Below are positions 1,086 to 17,926 of a DNA stretch of 24,000 nucleotides, piece by piece. The position numbers and the translations under genes are program-made. The notes below the pieces were generated by a model. That model searched no databases and was not told where the DNA came from. It saw only the letters and a list, made by a program, of their open reading frames with translations. This DNA comes from Marinomonas sp. IMCC 4694 (GTDB lineage: Bacteria; Pseudomonadota; Gammaproteobacteria; Pseudomonadales; Marinomonadaceae). Location: contig NZ_VSRV01000001.1 of assembly GCF_008122525.1 (NCBI RefSeq), forward strand, positions 738,611 through 762,610. Reading direction: 5' to 3'. The first letter of the stretch is position 1. Every line of letters starts with the position of its first letter.

Positions 1086-1096
1086 ACACTTACATT

Positions 1097-1154: not shown

Positions 1155-2810
1155 ATGAATCATCCATTAAAAAATGCACTGCCAATCGTTGCCGCCGCTT
1201 ATGGCGAAAAGTTTGGTGTGAAGGTGCTTATTCAAGGACAAGATGCGTTTACCGATGGTGAGCGGATTGTGATCCCAACAGCAAACCCAGACGACCCACA
1301 CTATCAACAGATAGCTTGGGGTTATCTGGCTCATGAAGCGGCGCATATTCGGCATACTAATTTTGAAATGGTGCAGAAGGCGTCGTCCAAGCCGATCCGT
1401 AAGACACTTCTCAATATCATTGAGGACGTTCGCATTGAAAACGAATTGGCAAAGGATTACCCCGGAACCCGGCGCAGTATTTTGCAAGTGATTGAGTACA
1501 TGGTGGACACACAGCAAATGTGTGTACCTGCACAGCTTGAGCCTGCATCTAACTTGCAAGCCTGGTTGTTGTTCCGCTTGAGATGCCATTTTCTGGACCA
1601 GAAAGCGCTGACGCCTTTGTATCAAGCAGTTGATGAAAGAGTGAGGCAACTCTTTCCTGCCGCAGCGATGAGCCGGTTAAGCGCCATGCTGACAGCAGTA
1701 CCTAGCCTAGCATCTACAGGTGAAGTGCTAAAACTTGTCGATGCTATCGTTGCCATGTTGGAAGAAGAATCTCGTCCACCACAGGATGAGTCTGATGCTG
1801 ATAGCGGTGATGACATTGGACAAGCTGCGAGTAATGACAGCAATAACAGTAGTGACAGTCAAACCCCGGAAGCAGACTCGTCTGCAATGGTGGATGCTGC
1901 TGAAACGGGGGATTCAGATAACTCTGATCAAGCTGACAATTTGCGACAAGCCTTAGAGGCCAGTGCCGCTCAGTTTGAGCCCGATACCTTTGCACAAGTG
2001 GCAGAAGTGTTGTCGGAACAAGCTGAAGGACATCAGGGCGTCACTCCACTCAGTTTGCCCCAAGCAGAGCAAGCCATGTTGGGTGATGAGGCCATCTTGA
2101 CCTTATCGGCGTCTGAGTCCGCTCAAATTCGAGCCCGAATTAGAGGCATGGTTCAGTCCAGTCAGGACAATCGGAATCATGCCCAAAGGCACGGTCTTCG
2201 AGTTGCAACCCATCGTCTTGCCGCTTCACAAGCAGGTGAGTCGAGATTGTTTATTCAAAGGCAACCTCGCATTGTCCCCAATGCTGCTGTGCACTTGCTG
2301 GTCGATATATCGGGTTCAATGGGTAAACCCATCGGAGAAGGTAATCGAAAGTACTTTCATATTGCCAATGAAGCCGCTTTGGCTTTGGCCATGGCACTGG
2401 AAGGCATACCGGGTGTTGTACCTGCGGTCAGTTATTTTCCTGGTATTCATCAGGAAGTTTCTATCGCGTTATTACCCAAGCAATCGGTTCGACATCGGGC
2501 CGCCTGTTTTGACCAAAAACCACGAGGTTGTACGCCTATGGCACAAGCGATGTGGTTTGCGGCAAACAGTTTGTTAGCACAAAAACAGAAGCGAAAGCTA
2601 ATGATAGTGCTAACCGATGGTGACCCAGATGATTGGGCTGCCACGCATGACATTGTTGACCGGTGCAGACGAAGTGGCTTTGAGCTGCTGGGGATCGGGA
2701 TTCAAACACGCAGTGTTGAGAAATTCTTTCCTCAAAGCATTGTGATTAATGACGTCAAAGATCTAAAGCGTGAGTTATTCGAAGTAACGCAACAACTGTT
2801 AATTCAGTAA
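1155..2810 (+). CDS. CobT-like protein: N-terminal HExxH region, acidic/Ser-rich linker, C-terminal von Willebrand factor A domain
   Basis: SD GGAGAC 6 nt upstream of the ATG. Contains the LAHEAAHIRH motif and a D/S/E-rich low-complexity tract (about aa 205-260). The vWA MIDAS motif is VDISGSM, with a later LTDGDP. The position matches the CobS/CobT-like pair of SXT/R391 ICEs. Confidence 0.85.
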   Translation: MNHPLKNALPIVAAAYGEKFGVKVLIQGQDAFTDGERIVIPTANPDDPHYQQIAWGYLAHEAAHIRHTNFEMVQKASSKPIRKTLLNIIEDVRIENELAKDYPGTRRSILQVIEYMVDTQQMCVPAQLEPASNLQAWLLFRLRCHFLDQKALTPLYQAVDERVRQLFPAAAMSRLSAMLTAVPSLASTGEVLKLVDAIVAMLEEESRPPQDESDADSGDDIGQAASNDSNNSSDSQTPEADSSAMVDAAETGDSDNSDQADNLRQALEASAAQFEPDTFAQVAEVLSEQAEGHQGVTPLSLPQAEQAMLGDEAILTLSASESAQIRARIRGMVQSSQDNRNHAQRHGLRVATHRLAASQAGESRLFIQRQPRIVPNAAVHLLVDISGSMGKPIGEGNRKYFHIANEAALALAMALEGIPGVVPAVSYFPGIHQEVSIALLPKQSVRHRAACFDQKPRGCTPMAQAMWFAANSLLAQKQKRKLMIVLTDGDPDDWAATHDIVDRCRRSGFELLGIGIQTRSVEKFFPQSIVINDVKDLKRELFEVTQQLLIQ

Positions 2811-2827
2811 CCACATCCATTTTACCA

Positions 2828-2858
2828 CCCTGCGGGGACGATTCCGTCTCCGTCAGGG
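2828..2858 (+). other. GC-rich hairpin after the stop codon (CCCTGCGGGGACG-ATTC-CGTCTCCG(T)CAGGG)
   Basis: 13-bp stem with one G-U pair and one bulged T, read directly. A second CGTCTCCG copy (2867-2874) is followed by T8 and then by the radC SD. Confidence 0.4.
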
Positions 2859-2893
2859 CATGGGTTCGTCTCCGCTTTTTTTTGGAGACTCCT

Positions 2894-3391
2894 ATGAAAA
2901 ACAGAAAGTTCTTAGCTGGCGAAGAAGCCGGTACTTACATCGTTCCTAAGCAAGTGACTGAAGCGGATATTTTAGATATGGCGCTTAAGCTTGCCCGTGG
3001 TCGATTGAGTAAAGGTCGCAAAATTGAACAGCCATCGTCGGCGTTCTCATACCTGCAAACTTTGATGCACGAGTATGAGCACGAGGTTTTTGGTGTGCTG
3101 TTTCTTGATACAAAGCATCGTGTTATTCGATTTGAAGAGCTATTCAAAGGTACTTTAGATGCGGCGAGCGTGTATCCAAGGGAAGTAACAAAGCGAGCGC
3201 TAGAACTTAATGCGGCAGCAGTGATACTGGTTCATAACCATCCATCGGGTGATCCTGAGCCAAGTGAAGCTGATAAACGCATTACTCATCGACTCCGTGA
3301 CGCCTTGTCACTTGTTGATATTCGAACGCTTGACCATGTTGTGGTCGCATCCGAGGGCTGCGTTTCGCTTGCCGAACGCGGTTATCTTTAA
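2894..3391 (+). CDS. radC: RadC-family JAMM/MPN+ domain protein
   Basis: Motif HNHPSGDPEPSEAD is the JAMM H-x-H-P-S-G...S-x-x-D signature. I prefer the ATG at 2894, which has SD GGAGAC at 2884-2889, over the TTG at 2882 used by the ORF track. Confidence 0.9.
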   Translation: MKNRKFLAGEEAGTYIVPKQVTEADILDMALKLARGRLSKGRKIEQPSSAFSYLQTLMHEYEHEVFGVLFLDTKHRVIRFEELFKGTLDAASVYPREVTKRALELNAAAVILVHNHPSGDPEPSEADKRITHRLRDALSLVDIRTLDHVVVASEGCVSLAERGYL

Positions 3392-3732
3392 TGAATGGGC
3401 GCATTGCCCATTCTCCTACATCACAAAAGCAGTCACATCAACACACATCATCACAGCTCGAATTTCTATTTGAGTTTGATGATGCCCCAGTCACTTGGTC
3501 TGACACGGAAATCTGGCAGTTACGCGAAGGCATTCTATTGGATGCGATCCGTGTATTGCTGGACGGTCGTGTCAGTACTCGATTGCGAAAGGATGTGTTG
3601 TCGTGGATTCAAAATGACGAAATAGCGCCATTTTGCTTTCGTGTTTGCGCGATGGCTGCGGTTGTCGATCCTGATGTGCTTCGTGATTCCATCATGTGGC
3701 TATTAAGACGACATGGTATCCAGCTTGACTAA
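3391..3732 (+). CDS. Hypothetical protein (113 aa), translationally coupled to radC
   Basis: Its ATG overlaps the radC stop (TAATG). I recognise no motif. A competing overlapping ORF at 3395-3625 is less likely. Confidence 0.5.
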   Translation: MNGRIAHSPTSQKQSHQHTSSQLEFLFEFDDAPVTWSDTEIWQLREGILLDAIRVLLDGRVSTRLRKDVLSWIQNDEIAPFCFRVCAMAAVVDPDVLRDSIMWLLRRHGIQLD

Positions 3733-3822
3733 CGCTCCTGTATTAACCGAACGGCTAATGCAGGACCTAAGCTGACTTTTACCACCTGTGGTAGGAGTCG
3801 GCATTTTACTTAAGGAGGTTAT

Positions 3823-4890
3823 ATGGCGTTACCTTTACAGATTGAAACAGTAAGGCCATATCTTAATGGCCAATGGCTTCAAGTCTTGGCGGCATTGGTG
3901 CCAGAACTTGATGCCGCTATTGCTCGAAAAGGCCGTCATGTGGCTTGTCCTGTTCATGGCGGTCGTGATGGCTTTAGGCTGTTCAAAGATGCTGAATATA
4001 CCGGTGGTGGCGTTTGTAATACCTGCGGTATCTTTCATGATGGCTTTGAACTGTTGTCTTGGATTAATGGATGGAACTTTGCTCAGTCTATTGAAGCAAT
4101 CGGTCAAGTTCTAGGTATTCAACCCGGACAAGTACCAACTCGGGCAATACCGAGTAACGCTGTTGACTGGAAGACTAAAAAGCAGGAAGAGGACAAAGCG
4201 ATTATCCATCGTTTGAATCAAACGTGGGAAGAAACGTTACCTCTTGCAGATACTCGTGCGCAACCTGTTTGGAACTACTTGCATCGTCGTGGCATTGTTA
4301 CCCGGCTTCGTTCTGAATGGGATTCGGTGCTGAGGTTTCATCCAAATTTGCCTTACCATGATGAAGATGGCCTGTTTATCGATACCTACCCAGCGCTGCT
4401 AGGTAAAATCGTTACTCAGCAAGGGCGTTCGGCCACGTTCCATCGGATCTACCTAAGTAAAGATGGATTCAAAGCGCCGGTTGAAAAGCCTAAAAAGATG
4501 ATGCCGATACCAAGTGACAGAACAATCACAGGTGGTGCCATTCCGATAGGTGAGCCTGGTGAAGTACTAGGTGTTTCTGAAGGTATTGAAACAGCTTTAG
4601 CGGTTACCAAAGCTACGGGACAAACATGTTGGTCGGTTGTGAATGCAACGCTACTGGCTAGGTTTGAACCACCAAGTAATGTGAAAATGCTGTACATCTG
4701 GGCAGATCACGATCTCTCTGAGACCGGCCTGAACGCAGCGAATGAACTAAAGAAAAAAGCCTGGCAAAAAGGCATTCTGACACAAGTGTTGATCCCTCCG
4801 ATACCAACGTCACTCGGCGTGAAAAATTGGGATTGGAATGATGTGCTGAATGTTTACGGTGCTATGGGCTTTCCGAAAGTTCATATCTGA
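3823..4890 (+). CDS. Zinc-ribbon plus Toprim domain protein (primase-like), conserved ICE core gene preceding the variable hotspot
   Basis: Strong SD AAGGAGG. N-terminal CPVHGG...CNTCG is a 4-ligand zinc motif. The C-terminal half has the Toprim-type motifs SEGIETALA and WADHD. Confidence 0.8.
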   Translation: MALPLQIETVRPYLNGQWLQVLAALVPELDAAIARKGRHVACPVHGGRDGFRLFKDAEYTGGGVCNTCGIFHDGFELLSWINGWNFAQSIEAIGQVLGIQPGQVPTRAIPSNAVDWKTKKQEEDKAIIHRLNQTWEETLPLADTRAQPVWNYLHRRGIVTRLRSEWDSVLRFHPNLPYHDEDGLFIDTYPALLGKIVTQQGRSATFHRIYLSKDGFKAPVEKPKKMMPIPSDRTITGGAIPIGEPGEVLGVSEGIETALAVTKATGQTCWSVVNATLLARFEPPSNVKMLYIWADHDLSETGLNAANELKKKAWQKGILTQVLIPPIPTSLGVKNWDWNDVLNVYGAMGFPKVHI

Positions 4891-4893
4891 TCC

Positions 4894-4917
4894 AAGGGGC
4901 TTCGGCCCCTTTTTTTT
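4894..4917 (+). terminator. Rho-independent terminator closing the core-gene operon
   Basis: AAGGGGC-TTCG-GCCCCTT followed by a T-run, starting 4 nt after the stop codon. Confidence 0.8.
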
Positions 4918-5306
4918 GCGCCTTGCATATTTGAAAAAACATGGAGAATGAAAAATAGATAACCAATAGGAGAAACAAACATGATGGTATTAACCCTGTT
5001 AACAAAGCAGATTGATGGTGAGTTTACGGTTTACTGGAAGACCGGCCTTCGAAGATGTGGTGAAGATAAAGGTCGATTTAGGAGAGCAAGACAACAATCT
5101 ACCTGAGCAGCAAAAGCCAATTGCAGCGATTCTTAATTTGGGTCAGCTGACTCGGGATATCGTAGAGTAGAGAAACGATAGGTAACCGAAGGTAAGAAGC
5201 TTGAGTGGTTAATTGCAGAGATACCAAGCAAGGTAAGGGAATAGAAGAAGCATCCCAGTATTAATAAAAAATCTCATTAATACTGTGTATAAAAGACAGT
5301 ATTAGA

Positions 5307-5463
5307 TCAAAAGTAAAGAATCGATTTCGGTACTGAAGCGCAAGTTTGGCTTCCATAAATTGGTCTATAAAGGCCTATCAAAAAAGAAAAATAGATAGCA
5401 TTATAGTTTGCTCTGGGAAACTTGTTGTGAGCGGAGCAGATGATACGGTCTGCACGGAGTTAA
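5307..5463 (+). pseudogene. Remnant of the C-terminal end of an IS5-group (DDE_Tnp_1) transposase
   Basis: Across two frames with internal stops it reads SKVKNRFR / VLKRKFGFHKLVYKGLSKKKN* / FALGNLL*AEQMIR. This parallels the E. coli IS5 transposase tail, recalled as ...RVEHVFRIIKRQFGF..YKGL.KN....LFTLANLFRADQMIR. There is no N-terminal part. Confidence 0.45.
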
Positions 5464-5589
5464 TCTGTCTAAAAGGAAGTATTTAAAGCTTCTTAGCTTC
5501 TAACTAGGGTGTAAATGGAAGCGCGAATTACGTCTGCTATAAATTAGGTCGACTTAATCGCATGTTCCTTAAGCATGGATGCAGGTGAA

Positions 5590-6505
5590 GGGAGTTGTTT
5601 CCTAAATCATTGAACTAATCATCAGAACCTCGAGCAGATCATTAAAACTTATAGATGGGTGACTATGATGGGTAAGGCTAAGTACAGAATCAACAACTGG
5701 AAGCAATGCAACCAAGTATTAATTAACCGTGGGTATATCATTTTCTGGATAGATGATACCGCCGTGAATTCCTGGCACTGCAACGAGCATCATGGAAGCC
5801 ACGGAAGAGGCTTCCAATTTACCGATGTCGTCATCGAACAGCCCTGATGAATAAAGGCGTTTTTAAGCCTCCGTTGCGCGCCTTACAAGGCTTTATTGAC
5901 TAAATATTCATCATTGTTGTATGTCTGTCCCTCTTAAGTTGCCGTCTTACATACGTATCAGTAAGCAGGTATAGACAGTTGAGATTCATTACCGCCTGCC
6001 AAGTAGCGGTCCAGCTGCTCACGAAGTTATTTATGCAAGTCTTCGGTGAAGGAGAATGGAAAATGCGTAAGCATGGTAAAGAAAAACGCCGAGTATGGCG
6101 TAAATTGCACCTCGCTATTTATGCCGCTACGCAAGAGAACATTGCTGCTGAAGTGGGCTTGGATTGTGTCGGTGATAATGAAGTCTTACCGACGTTGTTG
6201 AACCCGCTTCGTCGAAAAATAAAGCAAGTAAGCGCATTAAAATCGGGTGATCTCGCCATGTGGAAATAGGACAGTGACTATCATAAGCGGTTATTGTCAG
6301 AAACGACGATGTACCGTTCTAAGCAGTTGCTCAGTCTAAAATTGACGTTGAGAGATTACAACGCACAAGTCGGAGAAGTGTTAGCAAACGTCAAGGTAAT
6401 AAACAAAGTCATAAGACTCGGTATGCGTGTTCGAAAACCAACTGGCTAGGCTGTTAAAACCAAACAGGATCAGTTCGTTAGCTTAATGATTTGTTTAACA
6501 AGGCC
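5590..6505 (+). mobile_element. Degenerate IS5-family, IS903-group insertion sequence (about 916 bp, internally deleted)
   Basis: The left end GGGAGTTGTTTCCTAAATCATTGAAC matches the reverse complement of the right end, GGCCTTGTTAAACAAATCATTAAGC. Both resemble the IS903 IR, recalled as GGCTTTGTTGAATAAATC. The flanking 9-mers differ, so there is no target duplication. Confidence 0.7.
5665..6447 (+). pseudogene. IS903-group transposase pseudogene (stops, frame changes, about 140-bp internal deletion)
   Basis: Fragments MGKAKYRINNWKQCNQVLINRG, PPLRALQGFID*, FGEGEWKMRKHGKEKRRVWRKLHLA and WK*DSDYHKRLLSETTMYRSKQLL..LTLRDYNAQV..LGM are collinear with the IS903 transposase. TAG at 6267-6269 replaces a conserved Trp codon. 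Confidence 0.8.
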
Positions 6506-6623
6506 TTTCAAAAATGATGAATTTTCTCAAGCTTGGAGTTAGGCATAATGCAAATTTAGAACTTTATTTGTATTATGGATATAGATATATGCAAAAAAGT
6601 TATTAAAATTAACATTTAAAAAT

Positions 6624-6652
6624 TTGACTATTATTGCATTTAATTGTATTAA
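6624..6652 (+). promoter_or_regulatory. Candidate sigma70 promoter for the tna-like cassette
   Basis: TTGACT (6624-6629), a 17-nt spacer, then TATTAA (6647-6652), about 45 nt upstream of the leader-peptide ATG. This is a pattern match only. Confidence 0.3.
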
Positions 6653-6697
6653 TTAATCATCATAGTTTTTAACAACCAAACAAAGAGGGGGAAGAAA

Positions 6698-6811
6698 ATG
6701 TCTTTTTTTAAATTTATTTATGCTTTCCCTTTAATCATATCGGCGGTTGCACACTTCAACTGGTTTACAGCCGATCCTCAAATTAAAAATCCATCCAAAA
6801 ACTCTATTTAG
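6698..6811 (+). CDS. tnaC: Candidate tnaC-like regulatory leader peptide (37 aa)
   Basis: SD AGAGGGGGAAG lies 5-8 nt upstream of the ATG. The peptide is MSFFKFIYAFPLIISAVAHFNWFTADPQIKNPSKNSI*. It has one Trp followed by Phe, and Asp at W+4, as in E. coli TnaC (KWFNID). It sits 115 nt upstream of tryptophanase. The ORF track does not list it because it is too short. Confidence 0.45.
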   Translation: MSFFKFIYAFPLIISAVAHFNWFTADPQIKNPSKNSI

Positions 6812-6926
6812 TCTAAGAATCCCCTTTCTTTCGAATTAAAGTCATTCCGTTTTTCGTTTCTGCTTTAGCAGTATGCGTGTGACTTTTAGATTAAATATTC
6901 AATTATTTTTGATTAAGAGTTTTATT

Positions 6927-8327
6927 ATGAAAAATCTACCTCAACCTTATAAAATCAAGGCCGTTGAGCCGATCAAGTTATTATCTTCAGAACAGCGTTT
7001 AGCCGCATTAAAAAGCGTTGGCTATAACCCATTCTTGTTAAAAAGTGAGGATGTTTTTATCGATTTATTAACAGACTCTGGTACCGGTGCTATGAGTCAA
7101 GCTCAATGGTCTGCAATCATGAGTGGCGATGAGGCGTACGCTGGTAGCCAAAGTTTTTATCGATTAGAGTCTGCTGTAAATAAAGTTTTCAATTACAAAT
7201 ATGTCATACCTACCCATCAAGGCCGAGGGGCAGAACAAATTCTTTTTCCAGTTTTAATAGACAAAATGAAAAAAGAGAAAGGGGGTAGTAAACCTGTTTT
7301 CATCTCAAATTATCATTTTGACACAACTGCCGCTCACGTTGAGTTAAATAGTGCAAAAGCGGTAAACGTCGTGGTTGATGAGGCTTTTGATTTAAGTAAA
7401 CACTTTGATTGGAAAGGAAATTTCAACCTATCAAAGTTGCGCGAAACAATAAGCAAGTATGGTTCAGAAAATATTGCCGCTATTATTATAACCATTACAT
7501 GCAATAGCATGGGGGGGCAGCCTGTTTCACTTGAAAATATGAAAGCTGTTTATGGCATAGCACAAGAATTTAACATACCTATTGTAATGGATGCAGCCAG
7601 ATTTGCAGAAAATGCCTATTTTATTCGTGAGCGAGAGCCCCTTTTTGAAAATGTAAGTATTGAAGATATTGTTTTAAAAATGTTTCAGTATGCGGATATG
7701 TTTACTATGTCTGCAAAAAAAGATGCCATGGTAAACATCGGTGGACTTTGCTGCTTTAAGTACGATGAAGCTATTTATCGTGATGTACAAGCTTTATGCA
7801 TTCCAATGGAAGGCTTTGCTACGTATGGCGGGTTAGCAGGGCGAGATATGGATGCGTTGGCAGTCGGCCTGTTTGAAGCTATAAACCTAGAATATTTAAC
7901 CGCACGAATTGAGCAAGTCGACAAATTAAATCAGCAGCTTAGTAAAGCAGGTATACCCGTTCAAAATCCAAGTGGTGGCCACGCTGTTTTTATTGATGCA
8001 AAAGCTATGTTACCTCATATTCCAGCAGAAGAATTCCCAGGGCATGCTTTAGCTATAGCCTTATACCTTGAAGCAGGTATTCGTTCGGCTGAAATTGGCT
8101 CACTTCTTTTGGGTAGAGATCCAGATACTGGAGAACAAAAGCCATCTCCAACAGAGTTATTGCGTTTAGCTATCCCTAGACGAACATACACAAATGAACA
8201 TATGGACTATGTCGCAAAAAGTGTAATCAGCCTTCTAAAAGTAAAAGAGAACATCCCAGGGTGTCGTTTTACTTATGAACCGAAGATCCTTCGCCATTTT
8301 TTAGCTCGTTTTGAGCCAATAGCCTAA
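6927..8327 (+). CDS. tnaA: Tryptophanase (tryptophan indole-lyase), PLP-dependent beta-eliminating lyase
   Basis: Collinear along its whole length with E. coli TnaA as I recall it: [23 protein letters not shown], the [11 protein letters not shown]-lysine motif, LLGRDP.TG.Q.P..ELLRL.IPRR.YT, and TYEPK.LRHF. I prefer the ATG at 6927 ([11 protein letters not shown], matching the TnaA N-terminus) to the upstream ATG at 6873. Confidence 0.9.
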
Positions 8328-8345
8328 CACAACCCAACCACTCTA

Positions 8346-8375
8346 ATAGCCATTCTGCTTTAACTGAATGGCTAT
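8346..8375 (+). other. Perfect 10-bp stem hairpin between tnaA and the permease gene
   Basis: ATAGCCATTC-N10-GAATGGCTAT followed by the T-rich TATTTATAAT. It could be a partial terminator or an mRNA-processing or stability element. Confidence 0.4.
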
Positions 8376-8399
8376 TATTTATAATAATTAGGGGGATTT

Positions 8400-9659
8400 A
8401 TGAATGAACTAAAGAAAGTTTCTATTGTTTATGGTGCCACCGTTGTTTTTAGTACAGCTGTTGGTGTCGGAATGACTAGCCTACCAATAATAAGTACTGG
8501 AATGTGGTTTACGCTGAGTGTTGCAGTCATATTTTTAACTGCATTCTATCTTGTTTCAGCAGGAGCTTTGTTACTAGAAGTAAACATGAAGTATCCGGCA
8601 GGAACTGGAATTCACATGATGGTACATGACTTACTTGGCCCAAAGCATGCTTTTTTAAACGATTGCATGATGCTTTTTAATGGTTTTATTCTTTTATACG
8701 CTTATCTAACTGTTGGCTCTGAGGCTATACAATTTTACTTTAATAAAGTGTTAAGTATTGATTTAAACCATTCCTTAGCAGCTATATGTTTTGCAATTTT
8801 GTTTGGAGTTATTTTTTACTTACCGCCTTTAATCATTAGTCGATTTTTAACAGTCTTTATTGCTTTGATGCTATTGTTGTTTTTGTGTATATCGTATGTT
8901 TTAGCTTTAAATTTCGATATCAAAAATGCGTTTACTCCCGCTTTTGCATCTTCGGGGCCTGAGTCCACCAGTTTATTCCCATATATCTTCATTGCACTCC
9001 CTTATTTTATGGCTGCAATGGGTTTTCAGCAAACGATCCCAATGTTAAGGGAGCTTTATAACAATGATGCAAAGAGAGTTTACAAAAGTATTCTATTGGG
9101 AATCACAATAGTCTCTGTACTCTATTTAGTGTGGCTTTTTGTCATAATGGGGGCGCAATCACAAAGCTATATGATTACGTCGCTCTCTTCTGGAGAGAGT
9201 AAGTTAGAGAATATTGTCTCTACACTAAGTGAAAATAATAAAGTACAGGCATTGATGTATTTTTTTATTCAGGTTGCTATTGTCACTTCTTTTATTGGTG
9301 TAGCAAAGGGGCTGCTGGACTACTTAAAAGATCTCTGTGTTACTCATTATAATCTACAAGAAATCTATCCTAAACTTCTGGTTATTTTACCTCCTCTAGT
9401 TCTCTCAATATTTTTTCCCTATGGCTTTTTAATTGGTATTGGCTTTGCTGGATTAGCTGGCGCCATTTGGGGTGGCTTTTATCCTGCATTAATGGCAATC
9501 AAGAGTAGGGAAATAATAGCCGGGAACGCTAAAGATTCAACGTTTGAAACAATAGGTCATTCCTTCACCCCTAAGTTCACCTTGTTTTATAGCGTTTTAA
9601 TTGTACTGGTAATGATCCTTAGTTTATTCAATTTATTACCAAATTACCCAAATTTATAA
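8400..9659 (+). CDS. tnaB: Aromatic amino-acid permease of the HAAAP (Mtr/TnaB/TyrP) family
   Basis: SD AGGGGGA. A 419-aa polytopic membrane protein with about 11 hydrophobic segments, located directly downstream of tnaA as in tnaCAB operons. The family call rests on size, topology and context. Confidence 0.75.
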   Translation: MNELKKVSIVYGATVVFSTAVGVGMTSLPIISTGMWFTLSVAVIFLTAFYLVSAGALLLEVNMKYPAGTGIHMMVHDLLGPKHAFLNDCMMLFNGFILLYAYLTVGSEAIQFYFNKVLSIDLNHSLAAICFAILFGVIFYLPPLIISRFLTVFIALMLLLFLCISYVLALNFDIKNAFTPAFASSGPESTSLFPYIFIALPYFMAAMGFQQTIPMLRELYNNDAKRVYKSILLGITIVSVLYLVWLFVIMGAQSQSYMITSLSSGESKLENIVSTLSENNKVQALMYFFIQVAIVTSFIGVAKGLLDYLKDLCVTHYNLQEIYPKLLVILPPLVLSIFFPYGFLIGIGFAGLAGAIWGGFYPALMAIKSREIIAGNAKDSTFETIGHSFTPKFTLFYSVLIVLVMILSLFNLLPNYPNL

Positions 9660-9670
9660 GAGATATTATT

Positions 9671-10779
9671 ATGTTTACTTCAACTATTGATTTTAAATTT
9701 CTGATTAAGGTTATGTTTTTAACTTTTTTTCTTTTGGAGTTTTAGCCAAAGAAACAAATAGTAATGGTTTTCAAAATATAGATGCCGATTATTACTCATA
9801 TTCGACCTCAGCAACAAATACAATACCCGAGCAAAGTAAATTCTCATCTTCAGGTATTTTCCGATTGTATGGTAACTATGCGCTTGAAAATACGGACATC
9901 ATAAAGTTTAAAGTCGAGTACAGAGACACTTATACTACTGTTACTCCGAAAGATTTTGTCATAAATAATGTGGGAGCAGTTGGTTTAATTGAGCCTCAAT
10001 TCAGTGATATCGGATTTAGATTGACCAATTTGTATTGGCATAACAATTTAACTGAAAAAACAGAAATTGATATTGGCTTTTTAGATACAACTAATTACTT
10101 AGACACCTACATTTTAGGTAATCCTTGGGCTGGATTTAATAACTTTATCTTTAGTACGGGTTCTGGGACATTGACCATGCCAGATGAGGGAACTTTAGGG
10201 GTATCGATTAAGCATATATTCGATAATAATTACTATGCGTTGGCAAGTATTGCAGATGCGAATGCTTTGTCTAGCAGGCCATTTGACAACCTTATACAGG
10301 GAGAGTTTTTTAAGTCAATTGAATTAGGTTGGGTTCAAAGCGTAGATGAATTTTACACAAAAAACATACACCTTTTATATTGGGAGTTAGACGGAGGTAG
10401 CAGGCTAAGTCAACAAGATAGTTCTGGTTATAATTTTTCATTGGCTTATCAGGTTCAACAATTTTTGCCTTTTATTAGAGCCGGTATTAGTGAGGGTGAT
10501 GCAAGCTTGCTCTCTAGAAATATAACCTTAGGTACGGGGTATTTTCTTAATAATTCTCAAAACTCAACACTCGGCTTTGCGATAGGTTTCGGGGTGCCAA
10601 ATAAAGAGTTATTTAAGCGTCAATTAGAACATCAAACTACTACGGAAGTATTTTTAAAAACCACGGTTGGACCAAACCTAACTTTAACTCCGAGCCTTCA
10701 ATATTTGCGTGGCCTCCCTTTTAACTCTGAGGAAAATAACGCGTTAGTAATTGGGTTAAGAATAAACCTAACGCTATGA
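9671..10779 (+). pseudogene. OprB-family (carbohydrate-selective-type) outer-membrane porin, reading frame broken in the signal peptide at a T7 run
   Basis: ATG 9671 encodes MFTSTIDFKFLIKVMFLTFF and then stops at 9743-9745. The long frame, open from 9709, continues SFGVLAKETNS... to 10779. One extra T in the 9724-9730 run joins them into a signal peptide with a VLA/KE cleavage-like site. The C-terminal beta-barrel signature is LTPSLQYLRGLP......ALVIGLRINLTL. Confidence 0.7.
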
Positions 10780-10893
10780 TAAGTAATAATTTAAATATAT
10801 CTAAAGTGTAACCCCACCCAATTTAGCTTTAGCTAGCTTTTTAATTTACAGGTTGTGTAAGTTGCAATTAATTTAAATTTTACGGAATAAAAT

Positions 10894-11316
10894 ATGAGAG
10901 AAAATAAAATGAATATTTTACTAGTAAAGACTCAAAAAATTTTGAAGGAAAGTATAAAAGAAAAATTAACTTTCTTCTTTCCTGATTGGAAATTTAATTT
11001 CAAAGAAGCTGGAAGCGTAACTCAGGCAATTGTTCAACTAAGCGCCTGCAATATAAAAGACACTGATTTGGTAATTTGTGATTTGAACTTGCACAAGGGA
11101 GACGGGTTAGAGTTAATTAATTATTTAGCAATAAGTAAATTTAAAAAAATCCCTCTAGCAGTCACTAATGTAACCGACTTTAGGACTTTTCAATTAGTTA
11201 AGTCAATCATTTCTGGTTTCCAGCTAAATTGCGTCGGTGTTTATCAGTTCCCTGTAAACTGTAAAATCTTGTTTAAGGACTTTTTAAAAAAACATCAAAG
11301 GAGGAGACTACGTTAA
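10894..11316 (+). CDS. Degenerate (pseudo-)receiver domain protein; probably the N-terminal half of a REC-EAL protein
   Basis: It aligns to the CheY fold. ILLVKT replaces the acidic DD pair. DLVICDLNL retains the phospho-acceptor Asp. AVTNV retains Thr. QFP replaces the conserved K-P. The frame ends just after an A7 run. Confidence 0.6.
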   Translation: MRENKMNILLVKTQKILKESIKEKLTFFFPDWKFNFKEAGSVTQAIVQLSACNIKDTDLVICDLNLHKGDGLELINYLAISKFKKIPLAVTNVTDFRTFQLVKSIISGFQLNCVGVYQFPVNCKILFKDFLKKHQRRRLR

Positions 11317-11369
11317 CAGCATTAGCTTATAAGCAGAAACATATTTTAGACCTATTAAATGAAGAAAAT

Positions 11370-12113
11370 TTGTTTTTGGATTATCAGCCCAAGATTGACT
11401 TATCTTCTGGGAGTATTATTGGTTTTGAGGCATTGGCTAGATTGCGTTCAACTGATAATAAAGTTATATACCCTGAGGAATTTGTACCTTTATATGAAAA
11501 GGTCGGCCTAAATACCCAACTAACTATGCTTGTTTTAGATAAAGCGATTACTCATTGGAAAATGCACCCTTTTTTAAAAAAATACTCATTATCGATAAAT
11601 ATAAGTCCTAATGATTTACTGTCAAAGGCTTTTTCAGAGTTTGCCATTAAAGCACGTTCAGACTCTATGGATATAAAGCTTTTATTCGAATTAACAGAAT
11701 CACAGACAATTATTGATCAGTATCAGGCTAATAAAGTGCTCAACGAATTCATAGGTTACGGAATTTTAGTTTCCTTGGATGACTTTGGTAAGTGTCATTC
11801 TAACTTTTCTCGTTTAGATAGTTTTTCATTTAGTGAGATAAAAATAGATAAGTCATTCGTTAGTGATATCGACACAAATAAAAAACATTTTGCAATTATT
11901 GAATTGATTTTAAATTTAGCAAAAAAATTAAATGTTCAAGTGACAGCTAAAGGCATTGAAAGCTCGGTTGTTTTGAATAAATTGATAGATCTAGGCTGTA
12001 CTATTGGACAAGGCTATTATTTTAGTAAGCCTATCACAGAAGATTTGCTGCATGATTGGATCGAAAAACATACTAATAATCTGAAAGTAGAATCACTCAG
12101 TTTATGTGAATAA
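11370..12113 (+). CDS. EAL-domain c-di-GMP phosphodiesterase (frame open from 11277; no convincing start codon of its own)
   Basis: Motifs YQPKIDL, GFEALARL, SINISP, FELTES, LDDFGKCHSNFSRL, KIDKSFV and QGYYFSKP. The 11370 start in the ORF track is a TTG with no SD. Upstream in-frame sequence (LTALAYKQKHILDLLNEENL) already looks like the beginning of an EAL domain. Confidence 0.8.
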   Translation: MFLDYQPKIDLSSGSIIGFEALARLRSTDNKVIYPEEFVPLYEKVGLNTQLTMLVLDKAITHWKMHPFLKKYSLSINISPNDLLSKAFSEFAIKARSDSMDIKLLFELTESQTIIDQYQANKVLNEFIGYGILVSLDDFGKCHSNFSRLDSFSFSEIKIDKSFVSDIDTNKKHFAIIELILNLAKKLNVQVTAKGIESSVVLNKLIDLGCTIGQGYYFSKPITEDLLHDWIEKHTNNLKVESLSLCE

Positions 12114-12253
12114 ATACTTTTATTTCATAGCTAAAAACGCTTAGATAATTTTAAGAGGTTTAGTTTAAATAACTGAACTCTGGTAAGAGGAAATTAACCC
12201 AAAAATTAAACTTATTCGAAAGAGTAGTTTAAATAACTTTATGAGGTAACCCT

Positions 12254-12610
12254 ATGTCAATTAATCGTAAACAAATAACCCAAAGGATGAGTGCCAGTGT
12301 CACACACAACGGTACAGTTTATTTATGTGGGCAGGTATGTAAAGATGCCAATGAAGGAATTACAAATCAAACAATTTCAATGCTAGAAAAAGTAGAAGAT
12401 TTACTTGAAGACGCAGGAAGTGATAAATATCATTTATTAAGTGCTACTATTTTCATAAAAAATATGGCCTTATTTGAAGAAATGAATGATGTTTGGGATA
12501 AATGGGTGCCACAGGAAGCCCCCCCCGCAAGGGCATGTGTACAAGCTAAAATGGCTCGTCCAGAATTATTAGTTGAAATATCTGTTATAGCCGCAGTTAT
12601 AGATTTTTAA
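12254..12610 (+). CDS. ridA: RidA/YjgF/TdcF-family reactive enamine/imine deaminase
   Basis: SD GAGGTAA. 118 aa, with the family pattern G.VYL.GQV...QT...L.K...LL..AGS....LL...IF......F..MN..W..W and the C-terminal P-A-R-x-C-V motif containing the catalytic-type Arg. Confidence 0.8.
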
Positions 12611-12863
12611 CAGTTTTAAAAGTACATTAATTAGAGAATTAAGACCAATTTGGCGTAGTTGTTTTTTATCTATTTTAATGTCTATCAAGCTATGGGAAGT
12701 CCAGTTAGGTTGATTTCTTCTAGCCAAGGGCAGATAAGGTTTGTATATTATGCTAGTAATATCTCACTAGTCAGAAACACTCACAATTCCTTCATCTATC
12801 TGGCCAATCGCACTTACGGGGATCTTTAGGATGTTAGCTCTATGAAATTTTCTGGAGCTGACA

Positions 12864-13808
12864 ATGAGAACCCCTTTGTTACCTTGGTTCATCCTATGGG
12901 TGACCATCCCAATCATTATTTTCTTTCTATTCATCTTGCCCGCCCATGCCAGTGAGGGGCCATTCTATCAGCGTAGTCAGGAAGGTTGGTTTTGGTATCA
13001 GGTCATTCCCGAACCTGAACAGCCTGATGAGCTTACAGAGCCTGAATCTGGTGTAGTGGAGTCCAGTCAGAGCGAACTAAAGCCCTTCAGTGCGGCATGG
13101 TTCCGAGTGCATATGCAATCGTTTATGGACAAGGCAATTGATGAGCCAACGAGTGAGAATGTCAGAGCGTATCAGTATCTTCAGCGCGTCATGATGGATA
13201 AGGGCTCACTATTTGCTGATGTTAGTCAGCAAGTGGTCATGGGTGATCCTGTTTTGGATGAAATCAGTCGCAGACCCTTGGCGACCTACGCTGCCAATCG
13301 GATGGACAGAGAAGCTGGCGCCCAACGGGATTTTGCTTTAAGTGAAGTAGCAAAACAGGCTGGTTTGTTCTTTTTCTATCGTTCGGATTGCCCTTACTGC
13401 CAAGCTCAAGCGCCTATCATCGAATCAATGGCTTTGAACTACGGTTTCGAGGTGTTTGCTATTGCTGTCGATGGCTTGCCTTTACCGGGTGGAGAATTTC
13501 CTAATTACAAAGTCGATTCAGGACAAGCACAATCCTTGTCCGTTACGACTGTCCCCGCCATGTTCTTAGTTGACCCGCCTAACGTCATTACTCCGATTGG
13601 CCAAGGCGCAATGAGCCTTGATGAGCTCAATAATCGAATCATTCTCGCAGCCCATCAGGCCGGTTGGATTGACGATCAAACTTACTATGCCACCAGACCT
13701 GTTCAACCCGGCGTGTCACTCGCGATGTCAGCCCAAGAGCTTAACGAAAAGATATTACAGGACCCTGAGTTCCTTGTTCGCTATCTGCGTGCACAAGGTG
13801 GGTTATAA
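12864..13808 (+). CDS. traF: Conjugative transfer protein TraF (thioredoxin-fold, CxxC)
   Basis: N-terminal signal/TM segment, a CPYC motif within FFFYRSDCPYCQAQAP, and a position immediately upstream of traH-traG as in SXT/R391. Confidence 0.85.
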   Translation: MRTPLLPWFILWVTIPIIIFFLFILPAHASEGPFYQRSQEGWFWYQVIPEPEQPDELTEPESGVVESSQSELKPFSAAWFRVHMQSFMDKAIDEPTSENVRAYQYLQRVMMDKGSLFADVSQQVVMGDPVLDEISRRPLATYAANRMDREAGAQRDFALSEVAKQAGLFFFYRSDCPYCQAQAPIIESMALNYGFEVFAIAVDGLPLPGGEFPNYKVDSGQAQSLSVTTVPAMFLVDPPNVITPIGQGAMSLDELNNRIILAAHQAGWIDDQTYYATRPVQPGVSLAMSAQELNEKILQDPEFLVRYLRAQGGL

Positions 13809-13810
13809 CG

Positions 13811-15199
13811 ATGAAAAAAGTACTACGAGTAACGCTAATCGCCTGTGCGATTGGTTTTTCGTCTATGAGCCAAGCAAGCTTGCAACAGGAGATGAACCAG
13901 TTGTTTGGTTCAATGACCAACACCACTGCGCCTGGCGTATTTGAGAGTCAAAGGCGTGGCGTGATATCTGGAGGAAGTGTTGTTGTTCGTAACAGGATCA
14001 TGAACGAGAACCTCGTCTCTATGGTGCCACCGTCATTCCAAGCAGGTTGTGGCGGCATTGATATGTTCGCTGGAAGTTTGTCATTTGTTAATGCAGATCA
14101 GTTTGTTCAATTACTTCGCTCTGTAGCGGCAAATGCCAAGGGATACGCATTCCAATTGGCGCTCAGTGCTATGTGTGAGAAATGCTCCCAGCACATGGAG
14201 ACACTGCAAAAGAAAATCCAGCAGTTGAACGAGTATTTTGGCAATTCCTGTCAAATGGCTCAGGGAGTCGTGAACGATACCCTGACTGCCTTTGGTAAAA
14301 AGGGGCAAACAGAAGCCAGCATGTTGAGCTCACTTAAAGGGGCTGGAGACGTTTTTACCAGTTGGAGTGAATCCAATGGTAAGAACCCATATGAGAACGC
14401 TTCGAGTGTCGCGGCATCTGATGTGAACAAAACGATTAAAGGTAATTTGGTTTGGCGAGTATTGAAACGTCATTCGGCATCAAGCTGGTTTGCATCGGGG
14501 GATGACCGTTTTCTTGAAGCGGTTATGTCGGTGACGGGTTCGATCATTGTTGGTGATCTAGCTAATGCCGCTGATGGCCAGGGTAAAGCCCCAAAACTGA
14601 CCCGGCTGAATGGCAATAAAGTGACTATTGAGCATTTAATTCATGGCGGCAACGTCGCTATGTACCGATGTGACACAGTGACGCAAGACGGTTGTCTGAA
14701 CCCAACAATCACTATCGTGACTCTTACCGGGTTATCAACTCAGGTAGAAAATTTGCTTCTAGGTACAGGTTCTAGTAACGGCATTATTTTTAAATTTGCT
14801 CGAAATACAGGGGCTGCTAGCACCACCGAAAAGGCTTTTATGACCTCGGCTCCTGCGAGTATTGGCGGCATGATTCGAACACTTTCTGTATTAAATGAAG
14901 GGGCCGCTAGATCGTTTGCTTCAAGAGCGGCACCATTTATTGCTGTTGAGATGGCCCGAGCATTGGTTGAAGACATGCTCTATGCAGCTAGAAGTACCTC
15001 CGGTGTGGAAGATCATGCCTATGCGAAGTTATTAACGGAAGACCTTGAACGTGCACGTCGCCAAATTAATGAGGAGTACGCTGCTTTGCAGCGAAGATAC
15101 GGCTCAGAGCAAGAGTTGCTGGCGCATTTTAATCAGGTGATTCTGACCATTCGCAAGCAGCGTTATTACACCGTTAAATCTACGGCGCTGGGGGAATAG
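13811..15199 (+). CDS. traH: Conjugative pilus assembly protein TraH
   Basis: Signal peptide MKKVLRVTLIACAIGFSSMSQA. Conserved F-type TraH N-terminal block (MTNTTAPGVFESQRRGVISGGS...PPSFQAGCGGIDMFAGSLSF). The gene starts 2 nt after the traF stop. Confidence 0.9.
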   Translation: MKKVLRVTLIACAIGFSSMSQASLQQEMNQLFGSMTNTTAPGVFESQRRGVISGGSVVVRNRIMNENLVSMVPPSFQAGCGGIDMFAGSLSFVNADQFVQLLRSVAANAKGYAFQLALSAMCEKCSQHMETLQKKIQQLNEYFGNSCQMAQGVVNDTLTAFGKKGQTEASMLSSLKGAGDVFTSWSESNGKNPYENASSVAASDVNKTIKGNLVWRVLKRHSASSWFASGDDRFLEAVMSVTGSIIVGDLANAADGQGKAPKLTRLNGNKVTIEHLIHGGNVAMYRCDTVTQDGCLNPTITIVTLTGLSTQVENLLLGTGSSNGIIFKFARNTGAASTTEKAFMTSAPASIGGMIRTLSVLNEGAARSFASRAAPFIAVEMARALVEDMLYAARSTSGVEDHAYAKLLTEDLERARRQINEEYAALQRRYGSEQELLAHFNQVILTIRKQRYYTVKSTALGE

Positions 15200-15202
15200 G
15201 TC

Positions 15203-15331
15203 ATGTGGGAAATCTATTCCATCGGGGATTCGGCTTTTTTAGAGCAGGTCCTGAACGCTGTCGCGATGATCACTGGTACAGGCGACTTTACTGCGTATTC
15301 TCATGCATCGCGATCACCTAATACTATCTAA
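15203..15331 (+). pseudogene. traG: traG 5' fragment (30 native codons, then read-through into the IS to a TAA)
   Basis: The ATG lies 3 nt after the traH stop. MWEIYSIGDSAFLEQVLNAVAMITGTGDFT is followed by IS-derived residues. It joins the 17927-21412 frame exactly once the IS and one TTTAC copy are removed. Confidence 0.85.
15287..15291. repeat. Target-site duplication TTTAC (left copy)
   Basis: An identical pentamer directly abuts both IS ends. Confidence 0.8.
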
Positions 15332-15414
15332 GCCGATCACCTAATACCATCCATCAAGATCACTCAATACCATCGATGCCGATCACTTTTCGGTCAAAAT
15401 GGTATTGAGTGATC
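15312..15414. repeat. IS21-type multiple subterminal repeats at the left end (23-bp phasing)
   Basis: GATCACCTAATAC at 15312 and 15335, GATCACTCAATAC at 15358, and GATCAC at 15381, each exactly 23 bp apart. An inverted copy, GTATTGAGTGATC, lies at 15402-15414. On the complementary strand the right end has GATC repeats with the same 23-bp spacing. Confidence 0.8.
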
Positions 15415-15491
15415 GGCTTGAATGGTATCGTTCAATTTGTACACGTTTTTGTCTAGCCAGTAGGTGTTTTTAACCGTTATTCTTTTCATTT

Positions 15492-17054
15492 TTGATGATG
15501 AGAATGACCATGCCAACGGCACCTATTTCAATGCGTAAACTTAAAGAGATTTTAAGACTAAAATACAGCTGTAAACTCAGTCATCGTCAGATAGCAACAA
15601 GCTTATCTGTTTCACCCTCAATCGTGTCTAAATATGCCTGTAAATCAGCAGAGTTAGATATTACTTACTGGCCGCTTGATGAGAAGTGGGATGATCACGC
15701 TCTGCAACAAGCGTTCTTCAAAACAAAGCCTCGATTAAAGGGCTTTACCATTCCTGACTGGTCGTTAGTTCAGCAAGAGCTTCGGCCTAAAACCATGACG
15801 TTGTTGCTGCTTTGGGAAGAATACAAAGAGCGGCACGCGGAAGGTTTTTACAGTTACACTCACTTCTGCCGTCAGTACAAGGCATGGCTTAAATGCCAAA
15901 AACCCTCCATGCGACAAAATCATAAAGCAGGTGAAAAACTGTTTGTGGATTACTGTGGCCCAACCATGAGTATTGTTGATACAAGTACAGGCGAATGTCG
16001 TACTGCACAAGTGTTCGTTGCGGTCATGGGTGCATCAAATTATACCTATGCCGAAGCGACTTACAGCCAGAAACTCGAAGATTGGGTGATGAGTCACGCC
16101 CGTTGTTTTGAGTTTCTTGGCGGTGTTCCTGAGCTAATAATTCCTGACAACCTTAAAAGTGCCGTCACCAAACCGTGTCGATATGAGCCTGACTTAAATC
16201 CAACCTACCAACAACTAGCGACACATTACGATACGGTCATTGTGCCCGCTAGACCCTATAAACCAAAGGATAAGGCTAAGGCTGAAGTGGGTGTGCAAAT
16301 TGTTGAACGTTGGATAATGGCGCGCCTTCGCAATGAAACCTTCTTTAGCTTGCGTCAATTGAACCTGAAAATACAAGCATTACTGGTCGATTTAAATCAA
16401 CGTAAAATGAAAAAGCATCCTGGCTCACGGCTCAGTCAGTTTGATGCTATCGACAGACCTGCACTCAAACCACTGCCTACACAGCCTTACAGCTATACCT
16501 TAGTAAAACAGGTGAGCGTGCATATTGATTATCATGTGGAAATTGAAAAGCACTACTACTCAGTGCCACATACCTTAATTAAACAAAAGCTTGAAGCCCA
16601 TGCCTCCGGGAAGTTGGTGACACTCTACCATCAAGGCATACAAGTCGCTGTTCACCCCAGATCATACCGAGAAGGTGCGCACACCACGCTTGATCTGCAT
16701 ATGCCTATCGCTCATCAAAAGCAGCAACAATGGGCACCACAGCGGTTCGAACGCTGGGCGAGTAAATTTGGCACATCAACTGAGCAGTTTGTTATGCAAT
16801 TGATGCAAGCTAAAAAACATCCAGAGCAAAGCTACCGTGCTTGTATGGGGTTATTAAGCCTAGGTAAAAAGTTTAGTGATCAACGTCTTGAAGCCGCCTG
16901 TCATCGCGCATTAACCACAGGTGTTACTCGCGTTAAACAAGTAAAGACTATCTTAGAAAAAGGCTTGGATAAACAACCCTTGCCACAAGCTCAAGGTGAT
17001 TTACTACAAGATATTGATCATAAAAATATCCGTGGCAACCACTATTACCATTAA
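15492..17054 (+). CDS. istA: IS21-family transposase IstA
   Basis: N-terminal HTH region (MRKLKEILRLKYSCKLSHRQIA), a DDE-type core, and the size and position typical of IstA. The true start may be any of several Met codons between 15495 and 15531. Confidence 0.9.
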   Translation: MMMRMTMPTAPISMRKLKEILRLKYSCKLSHRQIATSLSVSPSIVSKYACKSAELDITYWPLDEKWDDHALQQAFFKTKPRLKGFTIPDWSLVQQELRPKTMTLLLLWEEYKERHAEGFYSYTHFCRQYKAWLKCQKPSMRQNHKAGEKLFVDYCGPTMSIVDTSTGECRTAQVFVAVMGASNYTYAEATYSQKLEDWVMSHARCFEFLGGVPELIIPDNLKSAVTKPCRYEPDLNPTYQQLATHYDTVIVPARPYKPKDKAKAEVGVQIVERWIMARLRNETFFSLRQLNLKIQALLVDLNQRKMKKHPGSRLSQFDAIDRPALKPLPTQPYSYTLVKQVSVHIDYHVEIEKHYYSVPHTLIKQKLEAHASGKLVTLYHQGIQVAVHPRSYREGAHTTLDLHMPIAHQKQQQWAPQRFERWASKFGTSTEQFVMQLMQAKKHPEQSYRACMGLLSLGKKFSDQRLEAACHRALTTGVTRVKQVKTILEKGLDKQPLPQAQGDLLQDIDHKNIRGNHYYH

Positions 17055-17082
17055 TAAAAATTAACAAACCATAGGAAGACTT

Positions 17083-17847: not shown

Positions 17848-17926
17848 ATTTTACTGAGGTCTACTGACAGACAAAAAAGTGATCGGCTTGAATGGTATTG
17901 AGCGATCGGCATCATGGTATTACGCA

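Follow-up and report, generated by a model that had tools for sequence, protein, structure and literature searches.

A putative extended tryptophanase operon of Pseudoalteromonas type in hotspot HS4 of an SXT/R391 integrative and conjugative element of Marinomonas sp. IMCC 4694

In Escherichia coli, tryptophanase is encoded in tnaCAB, which consists of a leader open reading frame (ORF), tnaA and the gene of a HAAAP permease. The tdc operon of E. coli encodes the dehydratase TdcB, the HAAAP transporter TdcC and the RidA-family protein TdcF. Integrative and conjugative elements (ICEs) that belong to the SXT/R391 family were mostly investigated as vehicles of antibiotic and metal resistance, and their genuine cargo includes the diguanylate cyclase genes dgcK and dgcL (PMC10672970). 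The variable region between s073 and traF of these elements bears the name HS4 in the naming scheme applied to Marinomonas ICEs, and in three described Marinomonas ICEs it contains nucleases or hypothetical genes and no tna genes (PMC5122569). Here, a stretch of 24,000 nucleotides (nt) of the Marinomonas sp. IMCC 4694 genome (assembly GCF_008122525.1, contig NZ_VSRV01000001.1, positions 738,611 to 762,610), referred to as the window, was analyzed. Its HS4 region carries a cassette of six genes: a TnaC-like leader, tnaA, a tnaB-like permease gene, an OprB-family porin gene (oprB), a gene for a receiver-EAL protein (REC-EAL) and a gene of the Rid family (rid). All coordinates refer to the window, unless another locus is named.

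The explanation favored here is that an extended tryptophanase operon was captured from a Pseudoalteromonas-type chromosome into HS4 of an SXT/R391 ICE, and as a whole it is given a probability of about 0.75.

Insertion point and origin of the cassette

The flanks of the window are SXT/R391 backbone with 94-96% nucleotide identity to, and the same gene order as, the ICEs in seven E. coli chromosomes. The backbone genes are arranged in the order DUF3150, VWA, radC, Toprim/DUF7146, variable stretch, traF, traH, traG, eexS and the FlhC/FlhD-like setCD, with the s070-s073 region, traFHG, eex and setCD conserved in both order and sequence. The assignment to SXT/R391 is based on the backbone within the 24-kb window, as the integrase and the attachment sites fall outside it. 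Homology to the E. coli-borne ICEs, as detected by blastn, spans positions 1-5127, 12768-15292 and 17927-24000. Since it ends at 5127 and sets in again at 12768, the insert is located between the Toprim/DUF7146 gene and traF. The former, a primase-like gene in the s073 position (3823-4890, + strand; Pfam Zn_Ribbon_Prim, DUF7146 and Toprim_3), is the left border of the hotspot and is syntenic with and about 96% identical to its counterparts in the reference ICEs L001 and L002. The right border is formed by the conserved upstream region of traF and traF itself (12768-13808, + strand; Pfam TraF), with backbone homology from 12768 onward. In the two reference ICEs, the gap between the two borders holds one hypothetical gene (L001) or McrBC (L002), and variable DNA in this place corresponds to HS4.

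The G + C content is 0.342 over positions 6505-12767 compared to 0.473 in the backbone. In 500-base steps, values of 0.29-0.40 were obtained across 6501-12500 and of 0.45-0.51 in both flanks. All cassette genes are located on the + strand, like traF, traH and traG. The original prediction, which had been made from the DNA letters without database searches, described foreign cargo in the known SXT/R391 hotspot between the Toprim gene and traF, with about one third G + C against nearly one half in the backbone and with genes co-directional with the transfer genes, and in all these points it was borne out. Its boundaries of 6506-12850 had to be corrected, with the variable stretch spanning 5128-12767 and the imported AT-rich DNA 6505-12682.

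The source of the imported DNA could be traced with a second set of contigs (L018-L022), in which the block has a chromosomal setting. There, rpsI-rplM, the gene of an ABC ATPase, a 3′-phosphoadenosine 5′-phosphosulfate (PAPS) reductase/DUF3440 gene and a ParB_N gene are followed by leader, tnaA, tnaB, oprB, REC-EAL and rid. The imported segment (6505-12682, + strand, about 6.2 kb, G + C content 0.34) is 94.8% identical at the nucleotide level to the contiguous L018 locus beside rplM-rpsI (L018 5615-11738). Adjacent to the block, L018 encodes an L13 protein that shows 100% identity to its counterpart in Pseudoalteromonas sp. 3J6 and 94-99% identity to those across the genus. Because the L018 flank has a G + C content of 0.355 and is thus as low as the block itself, the AT-richness of the cassette is that of its source. 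A longer form of the ICE (L012, L014 and L016), which additionally contains the PAPS-reductase/ParB_N pair, was also found, and L012 is 95.7% identical to L018 over 8 kb. The combination of genes was therefore not made on the mobile element; the L018 match points to a pre-existing chromosomal operon that was captured wholesale.

The nucleotide identity to L018 differs from gene to gene, with 99.0% for tnaA, 97.9% for tnaB, 96.5% for oprB, 92.0% for REC-EAL and 95.8% for rid. Furthermore, the metagenome copies of the ICE differ among themselves mainly in tnaB and oprB. The variation between genes hints at recombination among alleles before or after the capture.

The left end of the cassette falls within the 3′ end of the donor ParB_N-like gene and adjoins a degenerate IS5-family insertion sequence (IS) element (5590-6504, + strand). 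Fragments of its transposase lie in several frames (5659-5847, 5979-6269 and 6294-6449; Pfam DDE_Tnp_1 and NCBIfam IS5 matches). The element shows 72% DNA identity to IS5-family copies of Salinivibrio, with the homology reaching position 6505, and the remnant ends exactly where the imported Pseudoalteromonas DNA starts. This suggests an IS-mediated capture or an adjacent deletion, and it is concluded that the Pseudoalteromonas-type operon was captured whole into HS4, probably with IS involvement. Upstream of the remnant, about 140 nt from the start of the hypothetical gene with which this hotspot begins in other ICEs are present within the variable stretch, as a truncated 5′ remnant (5012-5170, + strand) delimited by the junction sequences and the blastn breakpoint at 5127. 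At the right end, 85 bp (12683-12767) between the imported segment and the backbone have no homology to L018, L001 or L002. A search for target duplications and inverted repeats around the cassette revealed only AT-rich matches as expected by chance.

The ICE with this cargo is recurrent, since in at least seven metagenome contigs (L008-L011, L013, L015 and L017) the cassette is connected with traF and additional genes of the backbone, with 99.3-99.9% identity to the window. It resides in Marinomonas sp. IMCC 4694, to whose proteins the TnaA, TnaB-like and Rid sequences of the window are identical, as well as in other, metagenome-sampled hosts. For the exact Rid protein of the cassette, the collection lists 33 blocks, and it occurs on many metagenome contigs. 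A megablast search with the cassette as query, run on plasmids and on complete E. coli genomes, resulted in backbone matches only, and no paper on the environment of the metagenomes was found under PRJEB22097.

In the longer form, a 361-bp tna leader region is present twice as a direct repeat (L012 1505-1859 and 3730-4090, corresponding to window 6505-6865; also in L014, L016 and L003), which flanks the PAPS-reductase/DUF3440 and ParB_N gene pair. The first copy of the repeat has 91% identity to the Pseudoalteromonas locus compared to 96% for the rest. The window represents the single-repeat form, and recombination between the repeats may have produced one of the two forms from the other. The gene pair, which we take to resemble an IbrA/IbrB-type pair, accompanies the tna cluster in two different places (L018 3807-5652; L005 14233-16073): in Pseudoalteromonas it lies upstream of the leader, and in a Pseudomonadales metagenome-assembled genome (MAG) between oprB and rid.

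Gene content and proposed working of the operon

Leader, tnaA, permease and OprB-family porin genes are adjacent in Pseudoalteromonas, Shewanella psychropiezotolerans, the Pseudomonadales MAG and the metagenome lineage L004. In three of these four lineages rid follows, and in two REC-EAL. Vibrio mediterranei has leader-tnaA-tnaB only. The synteny is kept across lineages whose TnaA proteins are 70-79% identical, and judged by it the core genes appear to form a functional unit. Between ICE and chromosomal alleles, the ratio of nonsynonymous to synonymous substitution rates (dN/dS) is 0.20 for tnaA, 0.49 for tnaB, 0.17 for oprB, 0.41 for REC-EAL (0.65 in the REC part and 0.36 in the EAL part) and 0.18 for rid, which agrees with purifying selection acting on each of the five genes. 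A scan of species-representative genomes for the porin pattern found only the Pseudomonadales MAG. As it missed S. psychropiezotolerans, which has the trio tnaA-tnaB-oprB, it understates the distribution. In L004, genes for a response regulator carrying an HD-GYP-type domain (Pfam HD_5) and for a large hybrid histidine kinase come directly after the tna-porin-EAL-rid cluster (L004 10003-14678), a second link of the operon to signalling by cyclic di-GMP (c-di-GMP).

The gene tnaA (6927-8327, + strand, likely start at 6927) encodes a putative tryptophanase of 466 amino acids (aa) with the pyridoxal phosphate (PLP)-lysine motif SAKKDA and a Pfam Beta_elim_lyase score of 283 bits. With the NCBIfam tryptophanase model NF009709, it reaches 717 bits at a cut-off of 285. 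The protein is 54% identical to E. coli TnaA over the full length, with SAKKDA aligned to the E. coli motif. A 31-nt stretch upstream of tnaA (6858-6888, TTCTGCTTTAGCAG...) recurs upstream of tnaB (8353-8383) with 71% identity; it may represent a regulatory element common to both genes or a chance similarity, given the AT-rich DNA. The TnaB-like HAAAP aromatic amino-acid permease (8400-9659, + strand, 419 aa) matches Pfam Trp_Tyr_perm over the full length with 251 bits (cut-off 22) and remains below the cut-offs of the NCBIfam TnaB/Mtr equivalogs (193 bits at 497 and 217 bits at 515). The OprB-family porin gene (9671-10779, + strand) is frameshifted in the window. In all other copies it is intact and encodes 369 aa with, as judged by eye, an N-terminal signal peptide; these proteins start with MFTSTIDFKFLIKVMFLTFFSFGVLA-KAT. 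The porin scores 44.5 bits with Pfam OprB (cut-off 22.9), where only profile positions 243-371 of 372, the C-terminal third, are aligned, and it has no sequence relative among the solved structures.

The leader ORF (6698-6811, + strand) encodes 37 aa, is preceded by the strong Shine-Dalgarno sequence GAGGGGG and contains the core WFTADPQIK. A core W-[FY]-T-x-D-P-x-[IL]-K is conserved in the leaders upstream of tnaA at seven loci of five lineages. In comparison with E. coli TnaC, which was read from MG1655 as MNILHICVTSKWFNIDNKIVDHRP, Trp, Phe/Tyr, Asp and Ile/Leu are located at positions 0, +1, +4 and +7, as are W12, F13, D16 and I19 in TnaC. The leaders are longer (37-46 aa versus 24), the stop codon follows 18-21 residues after the Trp instead of 13, and the spacer to tnaA measures 54-131 nt instead of 220 nt. 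The fold of this spacer is modestly stable (z = -2.56), and a terminator scan found no intrinsic terminator in it. If the ribosome stalls in response to tryptophan, it would have to do so during elongation. Such an elongation stall has reportedly been found for TnaC of Proteus vulgaris. Masking of the tnaA ribosome-binding site by the 3′ coding region of the leader was considered and rejected: the pairing occurs in the minimum free energy folds of all five lineages, but leader-only shuffled controls are similar (observed pairing sum 55 versus 37 +/- 12, reached by 7% of the shuffles).

The Rid-family protein (12254-12610, + strand, 118 aa; Pfam Ribonuc_L-PSP, 88 bits) is Rid2-like. Its score with the NCBIfam RidA model TIGR00004 is 59 bits and thus below the cut-off of 106.25, and its best matches among solved structures are PSPTO_0102 (E = 1e-32) and PA5083 (E = 2e-23), both Rid2. 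The Arg equivalent to RidA Arg-105 is kept (PARACV aligned with PARATV), and it is shared with the closest kin, the Rid2 imine deaminases PSPTO_0102, PA5083 and YoaB. The Rid2 assignment of PSPTO_0102 and PA5083 and the rule on this Arg are described in PMC5619798, together with the in vitro deamination of 2-aminoacrylate and other imines. It is plausible that the cassette protein clears aminoacrylate or iminopropionate, a substrate suggested by the gene neighborhood only; in the literature searched, no Rid2 protein was found to be linked to tryptophanase.

The REC-EAL gene (10894-12113, + strand; Pfam EAL, 195 bits, and Response_reg) is frameshifted in the window, and in other ICE copies it is intact and encodes 406 aa. 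The receiver scores 26.3 bits with Pfam Response_reg, below the cut-off of 30.2, and at the positions of CheY D12, D13, D57 and K109 it has K, T, D and F, so that the residue set of a phosphorylatable receiver is incomplete. The receiver of the chromosomal Pseudoalteromonas allele is also degenerate, with I-A for the acidic pair and S for K109. Among solved structures, RocR of Pseudomonas aeruginosa matches best (E = 2.5e-34 over residues 37-389). An intact EAL site needs RocR E175, N233, E265, E268, D295, K316 and E352, of which E352 is part of the Mg-chelating catalytic set, while Q161, R179, D296 and D318 recognize c-di-GMP (PMC2952852). The ICE protein retains all four recognition residues and six of the seven catalytic residues; E352 is replaced by Lys (codon AAA at 11949-11951). 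This codon is AAA in 11 of 11 ICE copies and GAA in five of five chromosomal Pseudoalteromonas copies, and all seven catalytic residues are present in the chromosomal allele P0158. In the homologues of Shewanella and Moritella, E352 is kept in 17 of 17 cases; 15 of these have a canonical receiver (D, D, D, K), and in the remaining two the receiver is the sole part that deviates. In the L004 orthologue, the phospho-acceptor position is occupied by Asn and the EAL domain is heavily degenerate (N233K, D295G, D296C and Q372L). Catalysis is therefore not a conserved requirement of the cluster. Due to the Lys at E352 in every ICE copy, hydrolysis of c-di-GMP is doubtful for the ICE allele; a function as phosphodiesterase is unlikely, and a c-di-GMP-binding or regulatory protein is more likely. 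With the RocR/PvrR type, REC-EAL shares the two-domain architecture and a similar length, and it differs in the receiver, which has K-T instead of the acidic pair and F instead of K109, and in the Lys at E352 of the ICE allele.

The original prediction had named a tryptophanase, an aromatic permease, an outer-membrane channel, a RidA and an EAL phosphodiesterase with a non-phosphorylatable receiver, forming one physiological unit. The first three agree with matches at the family level (Beta_elim_lyase/NF009709, Trp_Tyr_perm and, over the C-terminal third of the profile, OprB). For the Rid protein, the subfamily was revised to Rid2-like, whereas the clearance logic remains plausible in view of the kept Arg and the known Rid2 activity. 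For the EAL protein, the degenerate receiver was found as described, but an active phosphodiesterase is made unlikely by the Lys at E352, and this Lys, where the donor allele keeps Glu, speaks against the predicted degradation of c-di-GMP with a polarity opposite to that of the ICE diguanylate cyclases. The unit is upheld by the cross-lineage synteny of the core and the gene identities at the family level, although in this copy porin and REC-EAL genes are frameshifted.

From these assignments, the following working is proposed. Porin and permease would bring tryptophan across the outer and the inner membrane, and the Trp-containing leader peptide would make the expression tryptophan-responsive. 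TnaA would then split tryptophan into indole, pyruvate and ammonia, and the Rid2 protein would speed up the hydrolysis of released aminoacrylate/iminopropionate. REC-EAL, which should not normally be phosphorylatable and is devoid of the catalytic Glu in the ICE allele, could act as a c-di-GMP-binding or regulatory protein.

The intergenic gaps measure 72, 11, 114, 140 and 253 nt, and an Rfam scan of the whole window matched no family. Transcriptional read-through from the cassette into traF is possible. However, traFHG is a SetCD-dependent operon of its own, with SetCD sites confined to the conserved backbone (PMC4542580), and 96 conserved bases upstream of traF are kept in the window. For this reason, traF should not depend on such read-through.

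State of this copy and rival explanations

Compared to every other copy, the window alone has three one-base homopolymer deletions. The deletion at 6797 (A6 to A5) alters the C-terminus of the leader, the one at 9724 (T8 to T7, at about codon 18) separates the signal peptide of the porin from the rest of the gene, so that it is lost from the main ORF, and the one at 11286 (A8 to A7) separates REC from EAL. Furthermore, an ISShfr5-family IS21 element of 2635 bp is inserted after codon 30 of traG (15292-17926, + strand; Pfam rve, Mu-transpos_C_2 and IstB_IS21). It comprises istA (15492-17054) and istB (17083-17847), has the perfect terminal repeats TGCGTA/TACGCA and is flanked by a 5-bp target duplication TTTAC at 15287-15291 and 17927-17931. 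The element is 99.6-99.8% identical to copies on plasmids of Pseudoalteromonas sp. KG3 and Alteromonas macleodii. In the metagenome copies traG is intact (1189 aa), and with its traG interrupted the ICE copy in the window is probably impaired for transfer. A GTG-initiated ORF from 17879, inside the right end of the IS, reads on into the rest of traG.

The three private deletions and the IS in traG suggest either a decaying or immobilized copy or an assembly with homopolymer errors. In the case of genuine decay, porin and REC-EAL genes would be pseudogenes in this strain, the leader would be altered, transfer would be lost and at most tnaA, tnaB and rid would be working. This is quite conceivable, at slightly less than even odds: the three deletions compare with only 6 substitutions within the cassette between the window and L008, and the clean IS21-family insertion with its duplication cannot be a sequencing artefact. 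However, all indels shorten homopolymers, as is typical of long-read or flow-chemistry errors, the longer run is present in every other copy, ICE-borne or chromosomal, and no backbone gene is frameshifted. The homopolymer deletions thus fit base-calling error as well as recent decay.

Several observations weigh against the favored capture of an extended tryptophanase operon. L018 diverges by 5% from the ICE cassette and thus points to the donor genus rather than to the donor strain, and two of the six cassette genes (porin and REC-EAL) are frameshifted in the window. A consensus scan of 6300-13000 yielded promoter and terminator counts at chance level and no terminator after rid, and thus gives no indication of co-transcription in either direction. 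The leader matches no Pfam family at E <= 10 and, like the leaders of the other loci, is devoid of the Pro-stop of E. coli TnaC, with a Pro directly after the Asp (+5) and at some loci also at +10; based on the stop spacing and the missing terminal Pro it is regarded as a TnaC-like variant. The permease shares only 31% identity with E. coli TnaB, and TnaA scores 712 bits with the NCBIfam equivalog TIGR02617, below the cut-off of 825.8. The last value, together with a permease under every NCBIfam equivalog cut-off, would be in line with another beta-eliminating lyase, of the tyrosine phenol-lyase or cysteine/serine desulfhydrase type, and with transport of a different aromatic substrate by permease and porin. 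This is regarded as very improbable, as the tyrosine phenol-lyase model gives 538 and is thus well below the tryptophanase models (712-717), the identity to E. coli TnaA is 54% over the full length, and in every lineage the gene is preceded by a leader whose TnaC-like core has an invariant Trp. If tryptophan is accepted as the substrate, the module could chiefly be nutritional and serve the high-affinity scavenging and the catabolism of tryptophan, from which pyruvate and ammonia would be gained in nutrient-poor seawater, and indole would be a by-product instead of a signal. A catabolic flux is in keeping with an outer-membrane channel dedicated to it, the permease and the Rid2 deaminase, and the cluster is found in ordinary chromosomal contexts of several marine genera. 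The sequence does not separate signalling from nutrition, and the REC-EAL link as well as the HD-GYP regulator and hybrid kinase of L004 hint at lifestyle signalling, so that this role is a serious contender without being the more probable one. In contrast, it is unlikely that the ICE delivers an active EAL phosphodiesterase along with indole production and thereby lowers c-di-GMP, opposite to the ICE diguanylate cyclases. The strong EAL score, the six catalytic and four recognition residues kept, the complete set in P0158, the dN/dS of the EAL part and the precedent of dgcK/dgcL (PMC10672970) would speak for it. Against this stand the Lys for E352, a residue required for an intact site (PMC2952852), in all ICE copies, the frameshift in the window and the degenerate L004 orthologue. 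Similarly doubtful is a scenario in which ICEs spread the emission of an interspecies signal among marine genera by means of a self-contained indole module, made up of a porin dedicated to tryptophan, the permease, the tryptophanase, a Rid2 protein that scavenges aminoacrylate and a TnaC variant with its stall in elongation instead of at the stop codon, and in which the fixed Glu-to-Lys change of the ICE allele is adaptive, turning REC-EAL into a c-di-GMP sensor or disarming it for tolerance by new hosts.

Significance and comparison with known systems

The capture of an extended tryptophanase operon into HS4 provides a traceable case in which an ICE took a complete metabolic and signalling operon from the chromosome of another genus into Marinomonas. 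Should indole be made by the intact form, non-producers could gain through conjugation the production of a signal with effects on biofilm, persistence and neighboring species. The comparison furthermore defines an extended marine tna operon, with porin and Rid2 and sometimes REC-EAL, and a conserved TnaC variant, both of which are handles on nascent-peptide tryptophan sensing outside enterobacteria. No paper was found on tryptophanase as cargo of SXT/R391 or other ICEs or on the ICE of this strain. In this respect, the cargo is undescribed, as had been predicted, although its sequence is public. The parts are all of known kinds; new are the extended operon architecture, the TnaC variant and the presence of the operon on an ICE with a traceable chromosomal source.

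The cassette shares with E. coli tnaCAB the order of leader ORF, tnaA and HAAAP permease gene, and differs from it by three extra genes (porin, REC-EAL and Rid2) and by being carried on an ICE. The logic of the tdc operon is alike, in that an enamine/imine-releasing PLP enzyme, a HAAAP importer and a Rid-family protein are encoded in one operon. Enzyme family, substrate and Rid subfamily differ, and tdc has no porin gene, no such leader peptide and no EAL gene. Like DgcK and DgcL, the cassette is signalling-related cargo of this ICE family, but its domain is EAL instead of GGDEF and the catalytic Glu is mutated. With other HS4 cargo, it has in common the insertion point and the orientation along the transfer genes, but it consists of a complete metabolic operon of traceable chromosomal origin.

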